DNA from: a virus
Virus record (IMG/VR): IMGVR_UViG_3300030328_002321
Coordinates: 1-64,000 of that record
Strand: one strand, 5' to 3'
DNA length: 64,000 nt
Part shown: positions 13,496 to 27,179 of the stretch, piece by piece
Position numbering within the stretch: position 1 is the stretch's first letter
How the letters are laid out: the number at the start of each line of letters is the position of its first letter
Position numbers and translations under genes: made by a program
Notes under the pieces: generated by a model
Databases searched by the model: none
What the model was told of the DNA's origin: nothing
The model's input: the letters and a program-made list of their open reading frames with translations, nothing else

Positions 13496-14944
13496 TTATG
13501 ACGCTACACAAGTAATATCAAGCGAAGTATCAAATCTCTTAAGAGCAATACCAGCTGTCTTTAACATATGTACCGAAGCACCATCTACATCAGAAGCTCT
13601 AGATGAAGTTGAATCAAATCCTCTAGGGACTACAGATCCAGCTACACACCATCTTAATGCCTCACGACCTTTCTTAGAAATCATTTGAAGGTTATTTTGA
13701 CCATCATAATTTGATTGATCAACAAATACCATTCTGTAAGATTCTAAAGAATATCCTGTTGTAGGGTGTTTTGCACGAGCTTGCGCCACGGCACCATGAT
13801 CAAATAATGGTAATTTTACCACATTGATTGTGTGTCCATCTACATGCTCATAGGAAGTGAAGTATCCAGTTAATCCTAGGTTACGTCCTGAACCTGTGAT
13901 AAATCTGTTTTCTCCACCTACTTTCCAAGTATTACCTGAAAAGTGTGATTTTAAAGCCTCATCAAATTCTCTTGCTCCACCAGTACCTGTATATAAAGTT
14001 ACTTGCTTAACAGAAGCATCAGTCATTCCGTAGAATAAATCTCCGATGATGTTCTTTAATTTTGTTTCAGTCATAGTAGAGTAAGTGTCAGTATTAACAA
14101 TTTGCTCTAAAAGACCAGGACCAACGATTACAGGTTGTCCATTCTCATCTTTCATGTAAGTATGTCCGTTTGCATCGTAAGTTTTTTGACCATACCAGTA
14201 GTACATTTCACACTCTTCTTTAAAGTCAAGCATGTGTAAGTACTCTTCATAGTCCATCCAAAGTTTAGTAGTAGATCCTCCTTTAGTTGGTAAAGAAAAT
14301 TCTGCTACATAATCTTTAGCATTTCCAGACATATGGTAAGATTTTCTTACAGTTGTAAGTTTATTTCTTACTAATCCTGGAGATTCCCAGTTAGAAGCAT
14401 TACCTCTAGAGAAGTCTACTCCCACCGGTGCATACATTTGCGCCCAAAGCGCTCCTGCTACACAATCCGCTGCTGCAACTGTTGCTGTAGCTGCTGGGTT
14501 AACTAATTGTAATGTATATTTCCATGAAGTTCCTCCTGATACTTGCTCAGGCTCTTTCATAATACGTGCTTGAGTACCCGCTTGAGATACTAATACGTAT
14601 GGAAATACAAAATGTTTATCAGGAAATTCCAGCTCAAAAGCTGCTCCTCCTTGACCTATTGCTGATCCTGTTGGTCCTGCTACTGCTACTGGTCTCGTTC
14701 TCAATCTATGTGTTGCCACACGATATTCATACTCCAAGCGATCAATAGACTTTGTGTTACCAACACCTTCCGTTAAGAAAGATAAAGGGAATCTTTTGTC
14801 GTCTTTTCCTGCTAAATGAGTAATAATTGGAGACAGTTCAGTAGGTTTAGACAACAATGCATTTGAAAGACTGTTCATATCAGTCATTTGCGAATCATTG
14901 TAAAACGTTTTTTGAACGCTTATATTTGTTCCATTTACTGCCAT
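13496..14944 (-). CDS. Major capsid protein (crAss-like, HK97 fold)
   Basis: 482 aa; LVRNKLTTVRKSY, GPGLLEQI, LYTGTGGAREFD and GYFTSYEHVDGHTINV motifs; portal-scaffold-MCP synteny. Confidence 0.85.
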   Translation of the reverse strand: MAVNGTNISVQKTFYNDSQMTDMNSLSNALLSKPTELSPIITHLAGKDDKRFPLSFLTEGVGNTKSIDRLEYEYRVATHRLRTRPVAVAGPTGSAIGQGGAAFELEFPDKHFVFPYVLVSQAGTQARIMKEPEQVSGGTSWKYTLQLVNPAATATVAAADCVAGALWAQMYAPVGVDFSRGNASNWESPGLVRNKLTTVRKSYHMSGNAKDYVAEFSLPTKGGSTTKLWMDYEEYLHMLDFKEECEMYYWYGQKTYDANGHTYMKDENGQPVIVGPGLLEQIVNTDTYSTMTETKLKNIIGDLFYGMTDASVKQVTLYTGTGGAREFDEALKSHFSGNTWKVGGENRFITGSGRNLGLTGYFTSYEHVDGHTINVVKLPLFDHGAVAQARAKHPTTGYSLESYRMVFVDQSNYDGQNNLQMISKKGREALRWCVAGSVVPRGFDSTSSRASDVDGASVHMLKTAGIALKRFDTSLDITCVAS

Positions 14945-16167: not shown

Positions 16168-18849
16168 TTACCAGCATCCATACTTACATTTTTTCTTAAG
16201 TCCTCCTTTTTTAAACATGTTTTTAGTTCTTTTATTCCATTTTTTCCTTTCTACATTTATTTCTTTTTCAGTAAGATCTTGTATATTCTTACCATTAACT
16301 TTTCCTTTATGATTATTAAGCCAATATATAAAAACATTTTCTTGTGTAGGATTTTTAAGCACTTCATCAAAGTTATCTCTTCGTTCTACTCCTCCGTATA
16401 ACTTATCTCCTAAAAATAATGCATCTTGATCATCTCTACTAAGGTTAGAAAAATCTTGAGATGGACTAGCTATATATTTCTCATATATATTTGTAAAATC
16501 TTTTATAGTTTTAGTTGAACCAAAATATGTTTTATTTGCTGAAGAAGCTAAAAAATTAGCAGTTCTATTCATAGCTGTATTAGCTCCTTTTTTATCTCCT
16601 ATTTCAAATTGATATGCACCTCTACCAGGCCCATCATAAAAAGTTCCATCGTCGTTTTGTGAAACTTGAATTTTATCATCTACATTTCCAGATTCATGTT
16701 CAGCTATAGCATTCATAACAAGATTTACATTAGTTGTATCACTGCCTCTAAAATCCATATAACTCATCATATGATCTCTAAGACCACCATCTTCAAACTT
16801 CATATCAAATTTTTCACCTGTAATTTTATGTACTCCAGTATCAGGATCAATTAGAGTAGATCCAACACCAACTTCTAAAGGTGATAACATAAGTGCAGAT
16901 CTACCTAACAAACGCATTAAACTTCTATCTATTCTTGTATCTGGATTCTTTTTTCTATAATTTTCTATTTCTTTTCTTTTAAACTCATCACCCCTAATAT
17001 ATGCATCAAAGTACTGTTTAACATTCAAACCTTTAGTTTTTATATATTGTTTCATTCTTTCAAGGTCATTCATTGTCATCTGATCGTTTGTATAGCCATA
17101 AAGAAATGTTGGGGTACCTTTTTCTAAATCTTTTTTTACATTTAGATTTAAAACAGACATTATATTATCTTTTGAAAAAGCATCTTCTTTTAAAAACTTC
17201 CCTGTTTTACCAAATGTACTCCATCCTCCATCTTTAAAACTTACTGTTTCTTCCTTGTTTTCTGACGTTGCTGCTCCTGCACTTACAGCAACTGGAGCTA
17301 TAGCCCATGCTTTTCCTATAACGTTTTTCATTTGTTTTGGAGTAGCATCTGCATATCTAATAAGCATTTCTACATCATGAGGAACTTCTGATTTTGATAC
17401 AGCTTTAATAAGTGAACGTATCATATCATCTGTTAAATTTTCTGGCTTTCCATCCCACTTTACATTTTGTTTTAACCACTCTCCAGCTCTTACAAGTCTT
17501 GGTTGTTGTTCTGCAGGATCTTTCATATAATTTATTGCATTGGTTCCTACTTCTTTTTTTATTTTAAGAGTAGGATAGTTTTTATAAACTTCTGGTCCAA
17601 TAAATTCATCATACTGATTAGCTATTGGAGCATCTGGATTAGCAACTTTCATTTTTCCTGTAGGACTCCCAGCATGTCCAATCTCATGTTTTAATACATC
17701 CATTGTTTCGTCACTTAAATTTATTCCGTAACCTCTTTTTACATACATTCTTCCAACCTCTCCAGATGGGGCTCCATAGTATTGTCCCCAAGCGCCTTTC
17801 ATCCGCAGTTGTGATATTTGATCGTCAAAAAACTCCATATTTATAGGAGCTTCATTTACTTCTTTTACATAATCATCAACATGTGCTTTAACTACTTTCA
17901 AACTTTCTCCTGTATTAGCCATTCTTTTAGATGCATACTCATCACTTTGTAAATATTTTATATGGCTTAGTTTTGCTTTAAAAACTTTTTCTACATCAGC
18001 TTTACTTAATTTACCAGGATTTAAAGGCCCAGCTGCTAGTTCTTCTATAGGCGTATCATCTAGTAAAGACATATCGTCGTACTTAGGAACTCTTGCATTT
18101 GACATATCTGTAGAAAGTGGATTTTTTTTAAATAAATCTTTTGCTTTACCATATGCTTTTCCAATAGGTCCTAATATAACATCATCTATAAGTCCTGGTA
18201 TTTTTGCACCTGATGCTGATACTTTCATACTATTTAAGAAAGGAATAGGTGCAGCAAGTCCTATAAAAGTTTCACCATAATCTTGAGCCCTTTGTTTAAC
18301 GTCACCACTAGCATACATTTGATTAGATGATCCTGAGATCCACTGTTTATTAGGATTATTACCTATATATTTATTTCTAGTGTCGTAAACAACTCCTGTT
18401 ACACTCTCTCTAGTACCAGTATTTTTTTCAGTTATTAATCTTATCATTTTTTCTTGATCAGTCTCAGATTCTATTACTGTTGGGATATTTACAGGAGCAA
18501 CAGCTGTAGAAGAAGCTTCTGCTGTATGTAATCCTCCATGAGATTTTTTTACTCCTCCTGTTTTTAATAATTGAGGTTCTGGAGATCCTGTTGGTAAATC
18601 TTGTATTTGTAGAGATGTGTTACTAGAACTATCTACTAAAGAATTTGCAGTTGATGGAATAGAATCCATACTTACATTTTGTACTGGTGGGGGTGATGTA
18701 GGTGGAAGCTCTACAGGTTGAGGAGTAGAAATTTGTTGTTCTTCTTGTTGAGGTAAAATTGGTTGACCTTGAAGAGCTGCTATTATATCTCCAGATCCAG
18801 ATGTTTTTACCTGTTCTAGTATTGCTCTTCTATCTTGGTTTGTTAGCAT
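16168..18849 (-). CDS. Modular virion cargo protein with a zincin-like (HEIGH) and a lysozyme-like domain
   Basis: VLKHEIGHAG; AIAEHESG...GPGRGAYQFE; repeated xxxGG linker motifs. Confidence 0.55.
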   Translation of the reverse strand: MLTNQDRRAILEQVKTSGSGDIIAALQGQPILPQQEEQQISTPQPVELPPTSPPPVQNVSMDSIPSTANSLVDSSSNTSLQIQDLPTGSPEPQLLKTGGVKKSHGGLHTAEASSTAVAPVNIPTVIESETDQEKMIRLITEKNTGTRESVTGVVYDTRNKYIGNNPNKQWISGSSNQMYASGDVKQRAQDYGETFIGLAAPIPFLNSMKVSASGAKIPGLIDDVILGPIGKAYGKAKDLFKKNPLSTDMSNARVPKYDDMSLLDDTPIEELAAGPLNPGKLSKADVEKVFKAKLSHIKYLQSDEYASKRMANTGESLKVVKAHVDDYVKEVNEAPINMEFFDDQISQLRMKGAWGQYYGAPSGEVGRMYVKRGYGINLSDETMDVLKHEIGHAGSPTGKMKVANPDAPIANQYDEFIGPEVYKNYPTLKIKKEVGTNAINYMKDPAEQQPRLVRAGEWLKQNVKWDGKPENLTDDMIRSLIKAVSKSEVPHDVEMLIRYADATPKQMKNVIGKAWAIAPVAVSAGAATSENKEETVSFKDGGWSTFGKTGKFLKEDAFSKDNIMSVLNLNVKKDLEKGTPTFLYGYTNDQMTMNDLERMKQYIKTKGLNVKQYFDAYIRGDEFKRKEIENYRKKNPDTRIDRSLMRLLGRSALMLSPLEVGVGSTLIDPDTGVHKITGEKFDMKFEDGGLRDHMMSYMDFRGSDTTNVNLVMNAIAEHESGNVDDKIQVSQNDDGTFYDGPGRGAYQFEIGDKKGANTAMNRTANFLASSANKTYFGSTKTIKDFTNIYEKYIASPSQDFSNLSRDDQDALFLGDKLYGGVERRDNFDEVLKNPTQENVFIYWLNNHKGKVNGKNIQDLTEKEINVERKKWNKRTKNMFKKGGLKKKCKYGCW

Positions 18850-21112
18850 TCTGTTTTGCTATTTCTTTTTTACTCTGTATATCTTCTCTTTTAACAGCAG
18901 CAGCTTCTGAATTTCCTTGCATTTTTAATTCTAACTCTTGCTCTTTTAATTCTAATTCTCGTTTTTTAAGTTCAAAATCTTGAATCATTTTTTCTAGATT
19001 AAGAGAATTAGCATCTGTTTGATCTTTAGACTCTGCAGCTATTAAAGCAATTTCAATATCTTTTTGTCTATCTTTTTCTCTTTCAACCATCTCAGCTTCA
19101 AGTTGCATTTGTTGTGCTTCTAACTCTTGTTGTTGCATTTCTTGCTGAGCTTGTTGTTGAGCTTGTTCTAATTCTTGATTAGCTTTATCTGCAAGTTTAA
19201 GATTCTTTTTAATTTCAGTGAAACTGTCTGAGTCTAACATTTCAGCTATATCTCCTGGCTTAGCGCCATTTTGCATCATAGCTTGTGTTAATCCTTTGAT
19301 GTTTTGTAGTTTTTCTTGATCTTTACCTGCATCAGAAACAAATATACCATAATTAGTTTCCATATGTTCCATACTATTTACATCTAAATAATCTGTAGTA
19401 CCATCAGGCATTACAAACATTCCTTTTTTACCTGTTAACCATGCTTCTTTAGAATAGTCTAATAATGCTTGGAAATCTCTTTGTTCCATTCTTTCAAACT
19501 TTCTAAATAAATCTTCTGTAATATGTGATGATTGTAATATAGCTTGTTGTGAAGATGCTTTACCTTCATATGCTCCAATTTCACCTTGTCTTTGTCTACT
19601 TACACCAGAAATCTTTTCCCATTCCACTAATATAGAATCTAATAATGTAATATACTGACTTATAGTTTTTATAGACATATCCATAACAGATTGATGCTGT
19701 GGATTTAATTGTATTCCTTCTTTATTATAATCTACCCAAGCAATACCTGTACCTTCTACATAGTACATAAATTTATCCATATCCCATTTTTTAGGGATCA
19801 TATTAATATCAAATTGTGCAATTATATCTTTACTTCTTGCAATAGCAAGCTCTAATCTATATTTATAAATATTATAATTTAATTGATAAGGTATACCAAG
19901 TTTAACTAAAGATATATTTTTAGAATTTGTATCTGAATATCTTCTACCATTAATAGGTAATTTACATTTAGAAGGATTGTCTATAGATAATCTTTGGTTA
20001 AGAATAGGATTAACATTTACATATATTCTACCATCTATTCTTGTACCTTCCCATACTTCATTTACCCATTTCCATTCTAATTGTGCTCCTTGTTCTTTTA
20101 ATTCTGCAGGCATTCTAAATCCATCTTCAACTTCCATTTCTTCTAAAGCTCCTGTGTCTGGATCCATATAAGTTAAAAATCCTATTCTCTTTCTAGATTT
20201 CCAATATACATTTACAACTTCAATTAATCTATTTCTAAAAGCATTAGTATCTTTATTTGCAGAATTAGCATATAAAAAAGAAATATCACCTTCAGAATGT
20301 TTTGGTTCTTCAAGTTCTAGTATTTGTTGTTCTGATAAACTATCATAATATGCATCAATAACTGTAGATGCATGTACATACTTTCTAACTAATGCCCAAT
20401 CACCGTCTTCTACAAATTCTAAATCTGGATCAAGGTCATAGTCTACATCTAAAGGATTTAATATAGAATAATATGGTTCTCCATCTCTTACTCCTCTTTG
20501 TGTGTATGCTTCACCAGTTACTAAATAATGAAACCAAGCTTTTTGAATTTTATCATAAACTTCTTGTTCTTGCATTACATAGTTTAAAGTTTTTTGTCCT
20601 AATATAGCTCTATTGTCTACATAAGAACTTTCAAACATGTCTGCAATATGTTTAGGAGTTGGTATTTCTTCCATATTAGCACCTATATCTACTCCTTGTG
20701 CTTGTACTTCTTGTAAAAATCTTTGTCTTAAATTTTGTGCTATTGCTTCAGACTTTTCCATTTCTTTTAAAGTAAGGGCATCTGAGTTTTGTACTGTAAC
20801 AGTATAATTGAGAGGTCGTTTTGATTTTTCCCCTAGAAGAAGGTCAATTATGGGTTTAATGATGGGGTAGTTACGCATTTCAGAAGGGAAATTCTTACGG
20901 GCTTTGCCATAAGGTTTTAATACGTAATTATAATCTGCCTCATCAATTACACCGTTATAGTAATCATATAATATCTTAAGGTCATTCTTTTGTTTAGAAT
21001 GTGTTTGACCAGAATTAGAAAGATCTATAAATGCCTCCACACATTGTTCTCCCCATTTCTTATTCTTCTTATTAATCGAGAGCTTTTGCCTCGGTATTTT
21101 ATCGTATCCCAT
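18830..21112 (-). CDS. Portal protein
   Basis: 760 aa; NYPIIKPIIDLLLGE, WVNEVWEGTRI and ISGVSRQRQG motifs of crAss-like portals; near TerL. Confidence 0.9.
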   Translation of the reverse strand: MGYDKIPRQKLSINKKNKKWGEQCVEAFIDLSNSGQTHSKQKNDLKILYDYYNGVIDEADYNYVLKPYGKARKNFPSEMRNYPIIKPIIDLLLGEKSKRPLNYTVTVQNSDALTLKEMEKSEAIAQNLRQRFLQEVQAQGVDIGANMEEIPTPKHIADMFESSYVDNRAILGQKTLNYVMQEQEVYDKIQKAWFHYLVTGEAYTQRGVRDGEPYYSILNPLDVDYDLDPDLEFVEDGDWALVRKYVHASTVIDAYYDSLSEQQILELEEPKHSEGDISFLYANSANKDTNAFRNRLIEVVNVYWKSRKRIGFLTYMDPDTGALEEMEVEDGFRMPAELKEQGAQLEWKWVNEVWEGTRIDGRIYVNVNPILNQRLSIDNPSKCKLPINGRRYSDTNSKNISLVKLGIPYQLNYNIYKYRLELAIARSKDIIAQFDINMIPKKWDMDKFMYYVEGTGIAWVDYNKEGIQLNPQHQSVMDMSIKTISQYITLLDSILVEWEKISGVSRQRQGEIGAYEGKASSQQAILQSSHITEDLFRKFERMEQRDFQALLDYSKEAWLTGKKGMFVMPDGTTDYLDVNSMEHMETNYGIFVSDAGKDQEKLQNIKGLTQAMMQNGAKPGDIAEMLDSDSFTEIKKNLKLADKANQELEQAQQQAQQEMQQQELEAQQMQLEAEMVEREKDRQKDIEIALIAAESKDQTDANSLNLEKMIQDFELKKRELELKEQELELKMQGNSEAAAVKREDIQSKKEIAKQNANKPR

Positions 21113-21526: not shown

Positions 21527-23491
21527 TTAATAATAGTTTTGTTCGAACCACTTATCTGTAGCTCTATCTTCTAATATATCTTTAACTTCCGCATTATAAA
21601 GTTCTCGTGTATGATACATTCCAATCATTAGTGACATTACACGGTCAAAGTTACCCTTGTGATTAAATTTAATTAATTCTGTTAATAAAGCAGGGTCATA
21701 TATTTTATGTAAATTTAGTAATTTTTTTCCTGACTCCTCTGTACTTCTAACAGTGTTTAGCCAGTCTCTTATATATATCTCACCTTGACGCTTCCTTGCT
21801 TCGGTCATATGCATACCATATTGACGTTTTACGTTCTTACTTCTTAACTCTTTTTTGTCTAACATCTCAAATTCTTCTTGCAACTTATGCATTTTTCTAA
21901 ATCTTTTTGCATAAGCTATTACCTCACCTCTATCATTCTCAAATCCTATTTTACACCCATAATAATCTGCTAACATAAACAAATTTCTGTTATAATCATC
22001 TTGTGTATGTGGTCTTCCTACATATGATGCTACAATTATATCATCTGGTTGTGATAAATTGTTAGGTCTTTTTAATACATATGCTGATCCTAAAGATGTG
22101 CTATCTGCAGATTGATTTTGACCATAAGGGTCATGGCATATTACATATAAATTTACTGGAACTTGTTGTTGTTCATTTCTATAAGGTGATTCATATATTA
22201 CAACTGCCCCTGTTTTATCATCATCTTTTCTGTGTGGAAATTTAGTAATAGGTTTTAAATCACCATCTATTTTAAACTTAACTTCTCCTTTTTCGTTATG
22301 ATATAATTTACCTGCAGTACCTATTGCTTGTAAATTTCTAGCTTTTACATTATTATATTGTTCTTGTAATGATGCAATATCAAATAGGTTAGCTGTTATT
22401 TGTAATGTAGCTTCTTGGGGAGAAAAGGGGTGCTCAGCTATATATTGGTCTAAAGATTTTGCATCTGCAGCCCCTTTTTTCTTTTCCCTCATTGTTTCTT
22501 CATATTCTATAGCTTCTTGTTGCTTAGAATTACCGTCATCATCTATAAATCCATCTAAATTCTTTTGTATTGGAATAAAGTATCCACATCTTGTACCTAG
22601 TGCTCCTTCATCCCATATATTTTCATAATCCATACAATCATATGCTGCTGGATTATAAAATATTTCTTCCATAGCTTCAAAATCAGATCCTTCTGTACCA
22701 CCTGTACCAAAAGCTACCATCATTCCTAAAGTTTTAGCACCTTGTCTCATTGTTGGCATTGTTACCTCCCATGCTTTTAATAATCCTGGAAATGATCCTG
22801 CTTCTTCAAAGAAAACTAATTCACCTGCCTTACCCCTTACTTTATCTGGATTATCTTTTAAAGATACCCCCATAATTTGAGACTTCATCCCCATTTCTAT
22901 CTCCATTCCATTTATCTTTTTCTTATATCCAGACATTTTATGCATTTCTCTATCTCTTAACCGAGGTTGAGCCCAAGCAGTATGATCATCTATAAAAGAT
23001 AAAAACTCCCAAGCTTTTGAGAGTAATCCATCACCAATTAAAAATTCTTTAGAGGATGCAAATACAAAGTTTTTACTATTCCTAACAAAAAAGTAATTTC
23101 TAGCAAGCATAGATCCGGCTTTATAGGAATATCCCTTACGCCTTGCTTTTAAAACTATCATATGCTTATTTTCTGCTCTAGCTTTATCTATTTCATGAAA
23201 ATATTCATAATCTCCATCATAAAATCTTGGGAATGTACGTTCACGTTTTGCTTGTATTGATCCATCAGGTAATACTTCATCTACAGCTCTATCGATAGGA
23301 CAATAGTTTAAATAAAAGTAATGAAAACCTGTGATATGTAATTCATCTATAGTATACCCATACATACATCTATTTTGTTCTTCATCCCAGAACTCATAGT
23401 ATTCTCTAGTTCCTGGAAGTGCAGATGTATAGTGTCCGTATTTTATAAAGTTAACGGCGGCAGGTCTGACTCTGTCTGTTTCTTTGAGCAT
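21527..23491 (-). CDS. terL: Terminase large subunit
   Basis: LKARRKGYSYK Walker A, FFEEAG Walker B, GTGG coupling motif, RNase H-like domain (CHDPY, NFDRVMS). Confidence 0.95.
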   Translation of the reverse strand: MLKETDRVRPAAVNFIKYGHYTSALPGTREYYEFWDEEQNRCMYGYTIDELHITGFHYFYLNYCPIDRAVDEVLPDGSIQAKRERTFPRFYDGDYEYFHEIDKARAENKHMIVLKARRKGYSYKAGSMLARNYFFVRNSKNFVFASSKEFLIGDGLLSKAWEFLSFIDDHTAWAQPRLRDREMHKMSGYKKKINGMEIEMGMKSQIMGVSLKDNPDKVRGKAGELVFFEEAGSFPGLLKAWEVTMPTMRQGAKTLGMMVAFGTGGTEGSDFEAMEEIFYNPAAYDCMDYENIWDEGALGTRCGYFIPIQKNLDGFIDDDGNSKQQEAIEYEETMREKKKGAADAKSLDQYIAEHPFSPQEATLQITANLFDIASLQEQYNNVKARNLQAIGTAGKLYHNEKGEVKFKIDGDLKPITKFPHRKDDDKTGAVVIYESPYRNEQQQVPVNLYVICHDPYGQNQSADSTSLGSAYVLKRPNNLSQPDDIIVASYVGRPHTQDDYNRNLFMLADYYGCKIGFENDRGEVIAYAKRFRKMHKLQEEFEMLDKKELRSKNVKRQYGMHMTEARKRQGEIYIRDWLNTVRSTEESGKKLLNLHKIYDPALLTELIKFNHKGNFDRVMSLMIGMYHTRELYNAEVKDILEDRATDKWFEQNYY

Positions 23492-24263: not shown

Positions 24264-24513
24264 TTTCTTTTTTTAAATTTTCTAAAGCTTGTAATATTGT
24301 AGGAAATTGCATACAATAATCATATAATATCTTTTCATCTTCTGTATGCTTTTTCTTATTGTTATGTATTAAAACATATTTAAATAAAGCTTCTATATTA
24401 TTTTGTAACTGTTTTTCTTGATTACGTATTAGCATATATGCATCATAATCAATTTTCTTAGGTGCTCCATTAAGGAAAATTTTTTTCTTAGTTTTCTTTT
24501 GACTCTTTATCAT
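24247..24513 (-). CDS. Hypothetical protein
   Basis: ORF in a packed operon, overlapping its neighbours. Confidence 0.55.
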   Translation of the reverse strand: MIKSQKKTKKKIFLNGAPKKIDYDAYMLIRNQEKQLQNNIEALFKYVLIHNNKKKHTEDEKILYDYCMQFPTILQALENLKKENESER

Positions 24514-24730
24514 TATTTTTTTTATTTTTTAAAGCAGTTAAATATTTAACTCTATTTGGATTCACAGAAAACTTACCAAAATAAGGAAGTCTTACCATTT
24601 CAAATTTTCCCTTTTTCATAACTTTCTCTACAAATTTAAACTGATGATTTACTATTTGTTCTATTTTTTGTAGAGGCAACTTATATTTAGTTGCTAGTAG
24701 CTGTATTATCGCCTTTTTGTCTTTGGCCAT
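24488..24730 (-). CDS. HU/IHF-like DNA-binding protein
   Basis: Lys-rich 80 aa; helix-helix followed by VRLPYFGKFSV, the HU/IHF VxLxGFGxF signature. Confidence 0.7.
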   Translation of the reverse strand: MAKDKKAIIQLLATKYKLPLQKIEQIVNHQFKFVEKVMKKGKFEMVRLPYFGKFSVNPNRVKYLTALKNKKNNDKESKEN

Positions 24731-25004
24731 CTAATATTTGTTTTTTCCATCTTTGTGGTTTATCTGGACATGTAGTTGTTTTCCACTTTGCTTTATGTTC
24801 TAATAAACATCCACATAATCCGCATCTCATCTGAGGCTTTAAAACATGTTCACAATTATTACACGCTTCTAATCTTTGTACATAATCTTCTGTTGTTACA
24901 TTTGGTGCTCCTTGTTTTACATATTCTTTTAGATCTCTTGCAAAAGAACTAATCATATTAAATAATGAAGGCGGTTGTATCTTAGGATCTTCTGGATTAT
25001 TCAT
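24687..25004 (-). CDS. Small Cys-rich (Zn-binding) protein
   Basis: RLEACNNC...RCGLCGC...KAKW...CP...W pattern. Confidence 0.65.
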   Translation of the reverse strand: MNNPEDPKIQPPSLFNMISSFARDLKEYVKQGAPNVTTEDYVQRLEACNNCEHVLKPQMRCGLCGCLLEHKAKWKTTTCPDKPQRWKKQILDGQRQKGDNTATSN

Positions 25005-25641: not shown

Positions 25642-25877
25642 TTCTTTTGCATTTTAACTGTTCCGTTTGTATCTATTTCAATAATAGAAGATTTAGATTG
25701 TTTATTAAACTCTGTAACATATGGGGCTATATCCGTACGAGTTACTAAAAATGATAAGAATACTTGTAATTCTTTTAATAATCTATCACTTTTTTCTTGT
25801 AACTCAATAGTTTTTATCTTAGCATCTAATAATGCATGATAATCTTCAAGTTTTAGAGTAACTTGGCCTTTTACCAC
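25638..25877 (-). CDS. Hypothetical protein
   Basis: VTLKLEDYHALL N-terminus, coiled coil; coupled to groES. Confidence 0.55.
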   Translation of the reverse strand: MVKGQVTLKLEDYHALLDAKIKTIELQEKSDRLLKELQVFLSFLVTRTDIAPYVTEFNKQSKSSIIEIDTNGTVKMQKK

Positions 25878-26140
25878 TTTCCTAATATTTGATGTTCTGA
25901 TATAATTAAATATAACTGACCATCAATCTCTGTTCTTGCAGCTTCTGATCTAGGATCTACCATAACAGTATCCCCTTTTTCTACAAAATGACAATTAGGT
26001 CCAACAGCTAGCGCCTCCAAAACGTTTGATCGCTTTGCATTTTCCTTAGCTGTAGCCTCATCTAAGATTATTCCTGATTCTGTTTCTGTAATTACTGGGT
26101 CTGGAAGGACAACCCACGATCCACTTGGTTTAAAATTCAT
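25871..26140 (-). CDS. groES: Co-chaperonin GroES-like protein
   Basis: FKPSGSWVV, ETESGIIL mobile loop, AVGP, VEKGDTV and YLIISEHQILG. Confidence 0.85.
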   Translation of the reverse strand: MNFKPSGSWVVLPDPVITETESGIILDEATAKENAKRSNVLEALAVGPNCHFVEKGDTVMVDPRSEAARTEIDGQLYLIISEHQILGKW

Positions 26141-26157
26141 ATCTATATATTTTTATG

Positions 26158-26190
26158 CAAATATATAAACAAATTTTTTATAGTTCCAAA
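26158..26190 (-). promoter_or_regulatory. Bacteroidota sigma-A promoter for the groES-terminase operon
   Basis: TTTG (26190-26187), 21-nt spacer, TATATTTG (26165-26158). Confidence 0.7.
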
Positions 26191-26199
26191 TATTTTAAA

Positions 26200-26468
26200 G
26201 AAAAGTTTTAATACGAGAGAATTAGATATAACTCTCCCCCTTGAGGATTCTATTTCAAGTTGTGATTTCACTCTAGCAGTGCTCCGTTTTACGGGACCCA
26301 AGGATACTAAAACTGGTGTTAATTCACCGCACTTACCTGTGTGCATTGTATCCTAACTAGAGCTTATACGTTAACTCTTTTGCAACTACCGGAGAAAACT
26401 CTATCTCTATTTGAGACTACAATCCGATGTCTAATCCCTTTTTTGTTTACCGGGGGATGATAATGTTG
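26200..26468 (-). ncRNA. Candidate structured non-coding RNA (about 250 nt)
   Basis: Raised GC, nested inverted repeats, its own promoter upstream and a second promoter downstream. Confidence 0.55.
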
Positions 26469-26473
26469 CAGTG

Positions 26474-26504
26474 CAAAATTAATAAAAATATATTACAATG
26501 CAAA
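26474..26504 (-). promoter_or_regulatory. Bacteroidota sigma-A promoter driving the candidate ncRNA
   Basis: TTTG (26504-26501), 19-nt spacer, TAATTTTG (26481-26474). Confidence 0.7.
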
Positions 26505-26745
26505 TAAAAACACACAAATCATTAATAAAATATATATGACAGGAGAAATATCAAATTTTTTCATACTACAAATATACCTACCCTGATCTCTAGGGATGTT
26601 AAGGAAATGTTAAATTTTAAAATAAAAAAAATTTTTTTTGATGGGTTTGTGAACGTGTGAACCAACACAATCAAAGACCCCCGCTATGCTACGCACTTAA
26701 AACACCCCGCATTGGGATTGTTAGTGTTAATACATAATTTGCCTT

Positions 26746-27000
26746 ATGGATAATCCAATTTTAGCGACGTATATACGTCCAACTCAATCACTCAACCACG
26801 TAATGGTTGCGTATCAACCTAATATATTCTCTACTAATAAGATTATTGCTTATGTAAAGAATAGTGACTTTTTTAAATCCTTTGTTAAAGGACAAGAGTT
26901 TAAATTACCAGCTAATCCTCGTCCTGAATTTCGTTTCACCGAAGATGGAGAGAGATATGAGTATTCTGATGGTACACCGCAAGTGTATTTAGAGTGGTAA
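26746..27000 (+). CDS. Hypothetical early protein
   Basis: First plus-strand ORF, followed by a terminator. Confidence 0.6.
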   Translation: MDNPILATYIRPTQSLNHVMVAYQPNIFSTNKIIAYVKNSDFFKSFVKGQEFKLPANPRPEFRFTEDGERYEYSDGTPQVYLEW

Positions 27001-27003
27001 GAT

Positions 27004-27024
27004 AAGGGACTTTGTCCCTTTTTT
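27004..27024 (+). terminator. Rho-independent terminator
   Basis: AAGGGAC-TTT-GTCCCTT followed by TTTT. Confidence 0.65.
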
Positions 27025-27179
27025 CTACCACAATCAAAACAATTACGCACACACGGTCAACAGACCTTTGCTAAACTTCGCAAGTTTGTAAGTGTGCAAG
27101 TCAGGTCGTATTCACCACTTTTTACCACAATCTGACACTCAATCAATTTAATCACATAACATAATATAACATTAGTAAT

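Follow-up and report, generated by a model that had tools for sequence, protein, structure and literature searches.

The DNA analysed here (the window) comprises positions 1 to 64,000 of the viral record IMGVR_UViG_3300030328_002321 from IMG/VR, an 85,958-bp sequence rated 100% complete, and this report concerns a conserved, structured RNA of approximately 245 nt that is encoded on its minus strand at 26224..26470, upstream of a groES-like gene. The interval is that of the long form found in phages and extends from the first base before helix P0 to the end of a conserved YUAUAUC block; the element is single-copy in the record. The groES-like co-chaperonin gene (25871..26140, minus strand, ATG at 26140) matched Pfam Cpn10 (E 3.3e-6) and PHROG phrog_3188 (co-chaperonin GroES). 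It is the first gene of a minus-strand arm of at least 26 kb, so that the RNA element heads the arm. All open reading frames (ORFs) of at least 150 amino acids (aa) between positions 69 and 24263 lie on the minus strand, and include those for the portal protein (18830-21112) and the large terminase (21527-23491). A plus-strand arm with a family-A DNA polymerase begins on the opposite side of the RNA element. The GC content was 0.40-0.43 at 26200-26349 and 0.23-0.27 in the flanks, and both this enrichment and the identity of groES agree with an initial annotation of the locus, which had been made from the sequence alone.

Homologous loci were collected from IMG/VR. A search with the terminase identified 134 relatives, of which the best 80 of 134 were used, and an exact core pattern added at least 119 further stretches. 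Among the matches listed, 158 copies of the RNA were obtained; these reduced to 120 distinct 390-nt segments, of which 112 were full-length and served as alignment rows. All 38 related terminase loci whose upstream flank reached at least 3.3 kb carried the element. Among the matches listed, a groES-like gene lay directly downstream on the same strand in 156 of the 158 copies; the gene on the opposite side varied. In blastn comparisons among relatives the best-conserved part of the intergenic region was 26462-26235, and the median nucleotide identity to the window was 82% for the RNA (over 243 nt) compared with 74.6% for groES. The window RNA scored 175 bits with a model of the 3' domain (R1) and 109.5 bits with a model of the 5' domain (R2). 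The RNA gene is universal in this phage clade and strongly constrained, and its fold, described below, is pseudoknotted. The terminase was at most 42.7% identical to any GenBank phage terminase, with top matches that were all to crAss-like phages, and a blastn search of 25800-27100 against 50,697 GenBank phage records returned no match; judged by these comparisons, the lineage belongs to marine crAss-like phages and has no close deposited relative.

The minimum free energy of the minus strand was -69.8 kcal/mol (z = -2.78, with 1 of 200 shuffles as good), and the plus strand gave z = -1.36. In the 112-row alignment, 89.4% of cells were paired, compared with 36-43% when the partner strands were slid, and 611 cells carried changes on both sides of a pair (double-change cells), compared with 231 +/- 17 in shuffles. 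This is the outcome of a check that the initial annotation had proposed for the regions upstream of groES in related phages, and it bears out the prediction of covariation. For the phage-only and the bacteria-inclusive alignments alike, none of 500 shuffles matched the observed double-change count or covariation score, and the slid controls of the two alignments paired in 27-49% of cells compared with the 89-91% observed. Compensatory changes in the aligned sequences support the predicted helices P0, P1, P2, P3, P5, P6, P6a, P6b and P7 and the pseudoknot helix P8. The RNA was assigned to the minus strand because the frequent G-U pairs, such as the U-G seen in 66 rows of P2, are compatible only with that strand, and the folding z-scores agree with this assignment. 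Two domains were recognised: a 5' junction closed by the RNA's own 5' end (P0, P1, P2 and P3), and a 3' domain consisting of P5, the P6 three-way junction, P7 and P8.

Helix P0 (26382..26469, minus strand, as are all features of the RNA given below) is formed by the 5'-terminal GCAAC (26469-26465) and GUUGC (26386-26382), and closes the 5' domain holding P1, P2 and P3. Because its strands were misaligned by MAFFT, P0 was counted by script. The full 5-bp complement was found in 64 of 72 distinct leader/partner combinations, compared with a mean of 6.4 with foreign partners, and it was made up of 14 pair-type combinations; all 8 misses were rows cut at the 5' end. Hairpin P1 (26434..26458) pairs AUCCC (26458-26454) with GGGAU (26438-26434) and has a small GG/CC stem at its tip. 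As helix 2 of alignment A6 it was paired in 92% of cells, and one of its pairs occurred as UA in 36 cases, CG in 26 and GC in 4. The tip of P1 is longer and ends in a GNRA loop in other lineages, and an extra hairpin stands behind P0 in some. Helix P2 (26388..26428), in which AUCGGA (26428-26423) pairs with UCCGGU (26393-26388), encloses P3 and was 100% paired, both among 109 distinct rows and among 67 rows that included bacterial copies; in the latter its inner pair was A-U in 59 rows, U-A in 5 and G-U in 3. A UCUCC/GGGGA pairing returned by RNAalifold on the first MAFFT alignment was rejected, as the UCC belongs to P2 and the inner pair is compensated in island copies. Hairpin P3 (26403..26417) consists of GUCUC (26417-26413), an AAAUA loop and GAGAU (26407-26403), and all five of its pairs change on both sides. 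It is also a site of expansion, with the small hairpin replaced by a structured insert of about 63 nt in 11 phage copies, in which the P2 pairs are altered compensatorily (GUGGGA/UCCCAC). The copies with the insert are L031, L036, L052, L054, L057, L089, L100, L117, L140, L178 and L185. The motif UUUUCUCC (26391..26398), whose last three bases form inner P2 pairs, was invariant in all 112 rows of alignment A2; in one island lineage the site reads GUUUCACC, with a compensating change in the partner.

In the 3' domain, helix P5 (26271..26362; CUCUAGU 26362-26356 with GCUAGAG 26277-26271) encloses P6 and P7, and six of its seven pairs change on both sides. The P6 three-way junction (26301..26354) is specific to the phage form. 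It is closed by AGGAUAC (26354-26348) and GUAUCCU (26307-26301) and contains P6a (GCAC/GUGC, 26344-41 with 26332-29) and P6b (GGUG/CACC, 26328-25 with 26318-15); P6 and P6b were 100% paired and P6a 96.6%. Hairpin P7 (26283..26296; UCCC 26296-26293 with CGGA 26286-26283) encloses a segment of 5-25 nt across copies. Helix P8 (26257..26377) joins GAGUU (26377-26373) to AACUU (26261-26257); 81% of its cells were paired, and three of its five pairs change on both sides (e.g. AU in 48 cases and GC in 47). A tentative long-range helix, Plr (26226..26369; GUAUAA 26369-26364 with UUAUAU 26231-26226), was paired in 90% of cells, with changes that were mostly one-sided (one of six pairs changes on both sides). 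As P8 crosses Plr, the RNA is pseudoknotted. The motif AAGGGGGA (26235..26242) contains a GGGGG run that was invariant in alignment A2, and the loops and junction strands as a group (UUUUCUCC, GGUGAAUUAACA, GCACUG and AAGGGGGA) were near-invariant.

The pairings listed in the initial annotation can be sorted against this model. Its CTCTAG/CTAGAG, AGGATAC/GTATCCT, GCAC/GTGC with GGTG/CACC, and CCGT/ACGG elements correspond to P5, P6, P6a with P6b, and P7, respectively, and all have covariation support, P6 with 100% of cells paired. Three others are not supported. The 5' CCC run that had been matched with GGGGGA (as TCCCCC/GGGGGA) pairs locally in hairpin P1, with compensatory changes; the proposed AGTTG/CAACT stem gives way to P0, where GUUGC pairs with the 5'-terminal GCAAC, and to P8, where AACUU pairs with GAGUU; and the GGA of the possible GGAUU/AAUCC long-range pair belongs to P2, with variable sequence around AAUCC.

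It could be supposed that there is no RNA at all, and that the region is conserved either as a small protein gene (the 67-aa ORF at 26143-26346) or as a protein-binding region of the DNA. A 67-codon ORF does exist, and tblastn with it detected translated similarity in 119 copies, as for any conserved DNA. Its ATG was kept in 26 of 112 copies, the frame from the ATG runs for 18-70 codons, and indels in its variable segment fall into all mod-3 classes (44/50/18). The ORF is thus conserved in neither start, frame nor indel phase, in line with the initial judgement that no credible ORF is present. The compensatory changes and strand-specific G-U pairs also speak against both versions of this explanation, which is for practical purposes refuted.

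A scan of the whole window against Rfam 15 (4227 models) gave no matches at gathering score; with E values up to 10 there were only three matches, at 10.7-22.6 bits compared with thresholds of 52-100. ARAGORN made no tRNA or tmRNA calls, and an Rfam scan of four bacterial copies (see below) returned nothing at the position of the RNA. The initial impression that the RNA is neither a tRNA nor a tmRNA was upheld, and it belongs to no Rfam family. No description of the RNA was found in a literature search that included one 2026 preprint and had supplementary files outside its coverage. The RNA is a family absent from Rfam 15, with no published description found.

Two promoters bracket the RNA, as had been recognised initially and can be read directly from the sequence. 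The RNA promoter (26474..26504, minus strand) consists of a -33 TTTG (26504-26501), a 19-nt spacer and the -7 box TAATTTTG (26481-26474), and points into the GC-enriched stretch. The second promoter, for groES and the late arm (26158..26190, minus strand), has TTTG at 26190-26187, a spacer of 21 nt and TATATTTG at 26165-26158, and ends 17 nt ahead of the groES ATG. A TAnnTTTG box was found at the matching place before the RNA in 101 of 112 distinct copies; behind the RNA, 109 of 110 copies have one 15-29 nt ahead of the groES ATG. A terminator scan behind the RNA detected no intrinsic terminator between it and groES or the late arm. The 3' GAGAG hairpin of the initial annotation is present in the window (26215..26236, minus strand; GAGAG 26236-26232 with CUCUC 26219-26215), with the 3' arm of Plr in its loop; it is weak and has no clear U tract, and a comparable hairpin (-3 kcal/mol or better) occurs in 74 of 104 relatives.

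Sequences of the region were present in RNA libraries. Sixteen RNA runs from 7 studies contained 0.15-0.26 of the sampled words of 25900-26700, and low-depth contigs in four runs (four studies) covered 26240-26503, 25902-26460, 25938-26432 and 26240-26424. Two of these contigs (25902-26460 and 25938-26432) continue from the RNA into groES, with DNA carry-over possible; the absence of contig cover upstream of 26503 was given no weight. A depth of more than 700 (summed contigs of 32-50 nt) at 26602-26655 in one oligo-dT run was dismissed as a low-complexity A/T artefact and not taken as expression. The proposal of a stand-alone, multi-junction non-coding RNA (ncRNA) accordingly survives in part: the element is conserved, promoter-driven, multi-junction and non-coding, and its stand-alone character is uncertain, given that no terminator follows it and that RNA-library contigs run into groES.

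Further features were observed on either side of the element. Near the start of the late arm, minus-strand ORFs at 24488-24730 and 24687-25004 encode an HU/IHF-like DNA-binding protein (80 aa) and a cysteine-rich DUF6171 protein (105 aa), and a 115-aa protein in the same part of the arm has a weak winged-helix match. Deeper in the arm, a very strong 18-bp hairpin with a T-rich tail (13459-13420, minus strand) separates a 482-aa ORF (13496-14944) from the gene behind it and may be an internal terminator or attenuator. On the opposite side of the RNA, a plus-strand 84-aa ORF (26746-27000) has no family match and is followed by a clean terminator-like hairpin and T tract (27004-27020); this neighbour was found in only 10 of the 158 copies among the matches listed. 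A second GC-richer patch (0.43 GC) at 26618-26750, on the minus strand upstream of the RNA promoter, is 81-90% conserved in a subset of relatives only and contains a hairpin (26718-26704) as well as a stretch of eight A and then eight T; it could be another small RNA or a control region of the plus-strand 84-aa gene.

Bacterial genomes were searched for the same RNA. The exact P6b-P7 core pattern had no matches in 185,579 species genomes, and the 3'-domain model R1 had none in 151 Flavobacteriaceae genomes, because the bacterial form is without that domain. The 5'-domain model R2 detected the RNA in 1 of 151 genomes of a Flavobacteriaceae family sample. Among 41 relatives of this genome, 6 carried the RNA, at 9 positions; within the genus the count was 6 of 33 genomes, and a sample of 150 others from the class Bacteroidia added one more. 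A looser 5'-domain pattern gave at least 120 stretches distributed over all phyla; the outer P2 pairs were possible in 8 of 120 and the flanking conserved bases were present in none, and these were discarded as chance matches. When 14 of the bacterial copies and the phages of the insertion group were added to the alignment, 90.8% of the 5'-domain cells were paired, with 226 double-change cells compared with 65 +/- 8 in shuffles, and the inner P2 pair, an invariant A-U in phages, became U-A in five rows. The bacterial copies retain P0, P1, P2, P3 and the UAUAA block. Their P5 is UCUGA/UCAGA and encloses only 20-30 nt, and the P6/P7 junction is missing. Of 9 bacterial copies scanned, 8 contain AAGGGG, which was also recognised by eye in G304; a GUAUCUAAUU-like block comes after it. 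A 6-bp equivalent of Plr was found in 5 of the 9, all of one lineage.

These short forms lie in chromosomal islands. A same-strand ORF follows the RNA in all five bacterial contexts with ORFs listed (G139a, G139b, G159b, G167 and G304), and the contexts scanned with Pfam contained integrases, a Xis-like HTH_17 protein, a NikA-like protein and a ParB-methylase. One of the genomes has the RNA at the edge of an insert of about 7 kb between housekeeping genes, which carries a tyrosine integrase and a ParB-methylase; there it heads a same-strand series of a 64-aa ORF, an Xis-like HTH_17 protein, a TRL protein and a 154-aa ORF. The same genome contains a second copy at the head of a 64-aa ORF, HTH_17 and cargo genes, and a ParB-methylase is present there too. 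In a different genome the RNA stands just behind the end of an integrase gene and is followed by NikA-like and AAA_25 genes and catabolic cargo. Xis-like genes come after most of the island copies. Near-identical copies, flanks included, were found in five species, and the element is therefore mobile. The suggestion that the RNA serves in packaging or assembly is unlikely to be right, as the short form heads operons in small chromosomal islands and the island ORFs scanned with Pfam included no capsid, terminase or packaging family. The RNA may be a protein sponge or a ribozyme, as was also suggested initially. Copies L321, L330-L333, L337 and L339 share an upstream block, CGTTTTCTAAA..TTTC.., in place of the consensus -33/-7 promoter, with P0 directly behind a TATA-rich box. 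One second copy in a genome (L334; G172:C1:17397-17497, minus strand) has kept the 5' domain and P5 and lost AAGGGG and everything beyond it, and seems to be decaying.

Behind the RNA and ahead of the first ORF, the islands carry a long hairpin whose tail is U-rich, and this raises the question of a riboswitch-like or protein-sensing attenuator, in which a bound small molecule or protein would decide whether the downstream hairpin stops transcription. The compact multi-helix fold with its pseudoknot, the GNRA loops of some lineages and the competition of the island 3' hairpin with the Plr arm would all suit such a device. Against it, about 45 nt separate the end of the conserved RNA from the island hairpin, so that the two are not interleaved, and the phage 3' hairpin is weak, has no U tract and does not overlap a covarying helix; a terminator interleaved with a covarying helix, as a riboswitch would show, was found neither in the phages nor in the islands. 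There were also no matches to Rfam riboswitches, and the downstream genes (groES, Xis-like and NikA-like) share no metabolic theme. We regard an attenuator of this kind as improbable.

The position at the strand switch, beside the replication arm and near the cumulative GC skew minimum (at about 27.2 kb), would also be compatible with an origin-associated RNA, whose transcript would form a persistent RNA-DNA hybrid, helped by the G-run, and prime or regulate replication of phage and island. The invariant GGGGG run and the NikA-like and AAA_25 genes behind the RNA in one island fit this idea. A skew minimum at this place follows equally from the switch in gene orientation, a primer would need neither a covarying fold nor invariant loops, and most island copies precede Xis-like and not replication genes, so that a role at the origin appears very improbable.

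The element may instead be the gene of a trans-acting RNA, which, as a sponge or scaffold, would bind a protein of host or phage during infection and titrate or guide it, with island copies that serve the same purpose or interfere with the phage. Its own consensus promoter (101 of 112 copies), the separate groES promoter right behind it (109 of 110), the near-invariant loops and junction strands and a nucleotide identity above that of groES (82% compared with 74.6%) are what such a gene would be expected to have, and abundant ncRNAs with no function assigned were reported for the crAss-like phage phi14:2 (bioRxiv 10.1101/2020.03.07.982082). Several points tell against this. Phages and islands are unrelated elements, and in both the RNA keeps its place and orientation ahead of a same-strand operon, for which trans action gives no need; no terminator ends the RNA; and the complements of its invariant single-stranded motifs were not enriched at gene starts in the window (TCCCCCTT and TGTTAATTCA). 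A further complement, GGAGAAAA, occurred 14 times where 3.25 occurrences were expected, but within coding sequence (purine-rich codons), except for two just before an ATG, and was set aside. On balance, action in trans is considered less likely than not, but it is a serious rival to the reading given next.

The explanation we prefer, tentatively and with a confidence a little short of even, is that the RNA is a cis-acting leader that controls transcription read-through, functionally like the put, EAR or conAn2 RNAs and unrelated to them in sequence. Host RNA polymerase would start at the Bacteroidota-type promoter of the RNA and make its roughly 245 nt ahead of the rest of the late (virion-gene) arm; once folded, the nascent RNA would act on the transcribing polymerase or a factor attached to it; and transcription from the RNA promoter would then pass downstream stop signals into the long operon. 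The RNA has the same orientation directly ahead of an operon both in the phage clade and in unrelated integrative elements, and cis action is an easier explanation of this than trans action. The place of the RNA before an uninterrupted arm of at least 26 kb, the lack of an intrinsic terminator behind it, the strong hairpin within the arm, the hairpin in front of the first island ORF and, as weak support, the two contigs that continue into groES point the same way. Three RNA antiterminators have been described (put, EAR and conAn2); each is restricted to cis action and heads long operons of mobile or surface-polysaccharide gene sets (PMC8191782), and a read-through leader is therefore favoured. 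A bolder extension, which we consider possible and on the doubtful side, is that the RNA represents a new polymerase-modifying (processive antitermination) class, the first for Bacteroidota, common to abundant ocean crAss-like phages and small integrative islands in their likely hosts; such islands could be satellites with a copy of the late-operon leader, by which the same machinery would switch them on during infection.

Several observations weigh against a read-through leader. In 109 of 110 copies a separate promoter precedes groES, so that the late genes need not be transcribed from the RNA promoter, and the layout fits a separate RNA gene equally well. The late arm contained 9 terminator-like sites, among them the 18-bp hairpin at 13459-13420, compared with 6.5 +/- 2.5 in shuffles, which is no enrichment. 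Some island operons are short, and one consists of about 1.6 kb of small genes that would hardly need processive antitermination. No consensus -7-box promoter was recognised before the island copies, which makes their promoter-proximal position uncertain. The near-invariant loops of the phage-specific P6 domain suggest a bound partner, which could equally well act in trans. The RNA-library contigs indicate presence only, without transcript ends, strand or abundance, and the lack of an Rfam match at gathering score likewise gives this reading no help.

The crAss-like phages of Flavobacteriia are abundant in the sea, and to our knowledge it is not known how they time or sustain transcription of their long virion-gene arm; nor do we know of an RNA antiterminator described from Bacteroidota, a phylum whose promoters and translation signals depart from the textbook. 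An RNA at the head of the arm, together with its trimmed island version, provides a testable handle on operon control in the mobile elements of Bacteroidota, and the family also connects uncultured phages by sequence to a candidate host genus. If the RNA should act in trans, the RNA family would still be new, and its more than 100 representatives, in two natural size variants, would make it useful for structural study.

Among known systems, the pRNA of phage phi29 is a phage-encoded, structured packaging RNA of comparable size. The present RNA differs in that it has no Rfam match, the phage has a classical large terminase, and the island ORFs scanned are without a packaging family. GOLLD and ROOL are large orphan structured RNAs, often carried by phages, and both are Rfam families; Rfam also includes an EAR model. 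Like these two, the RNA is phage-borne, has an elaborate fold supported by covariation and no assigned function, and was found by comparative genomics. Unlike them, it is much smaller (about 245 nt), does not match their Rfam models, occupies a constant place heading an operon and exists in a short form in chromosomal islands. The nearest published crAss-like case is Cellulophaga phage phi14:2, for which abundant intergenic ncRNAs were described at the g004-g005 and g005-g006 junctions (bioRxiv 10.1101/2020.03.07.982082). These too are non-coding transcripts of a marine crAss-like phage of Flavobacteriia; they belong to early rightward transcription and lie several kb from the strand switch. 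A homologue of the present RNA was not detected in phi14:2, where the best R1 score was 16 bits (E 0.62) and R2 gave nothing at E up to 1.

The closest functional comparison is with put of phage HK022, EAR of Bacilli and conAn2 of pLS20-type conjugative plasmids (PMC8191782). Those RNAs come from Firmicutes or Proteobacteria, and the host phylum here is Bacteroidota. No Rfam family matches the phage RNA in sequence or structure, homology being judged by the Rfam scan. By the account in the cited paper, put and EAR are much smaller than conAn2, and conAn2 requires the ConAn1 protein (PMC8191782); no counterpart of this protein was identified for the phage RNA. The size of conAn2 (260-600 bp) is similar to that of the phage RNA, and its intergenic region also holds an internal promoter, P29 (PMC8191782). 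With all three, the RNA shares a folded structure at the head of a long mobile-element operon and on the operon's strand; in the islands, a terminator-like hairpin stands behind it.

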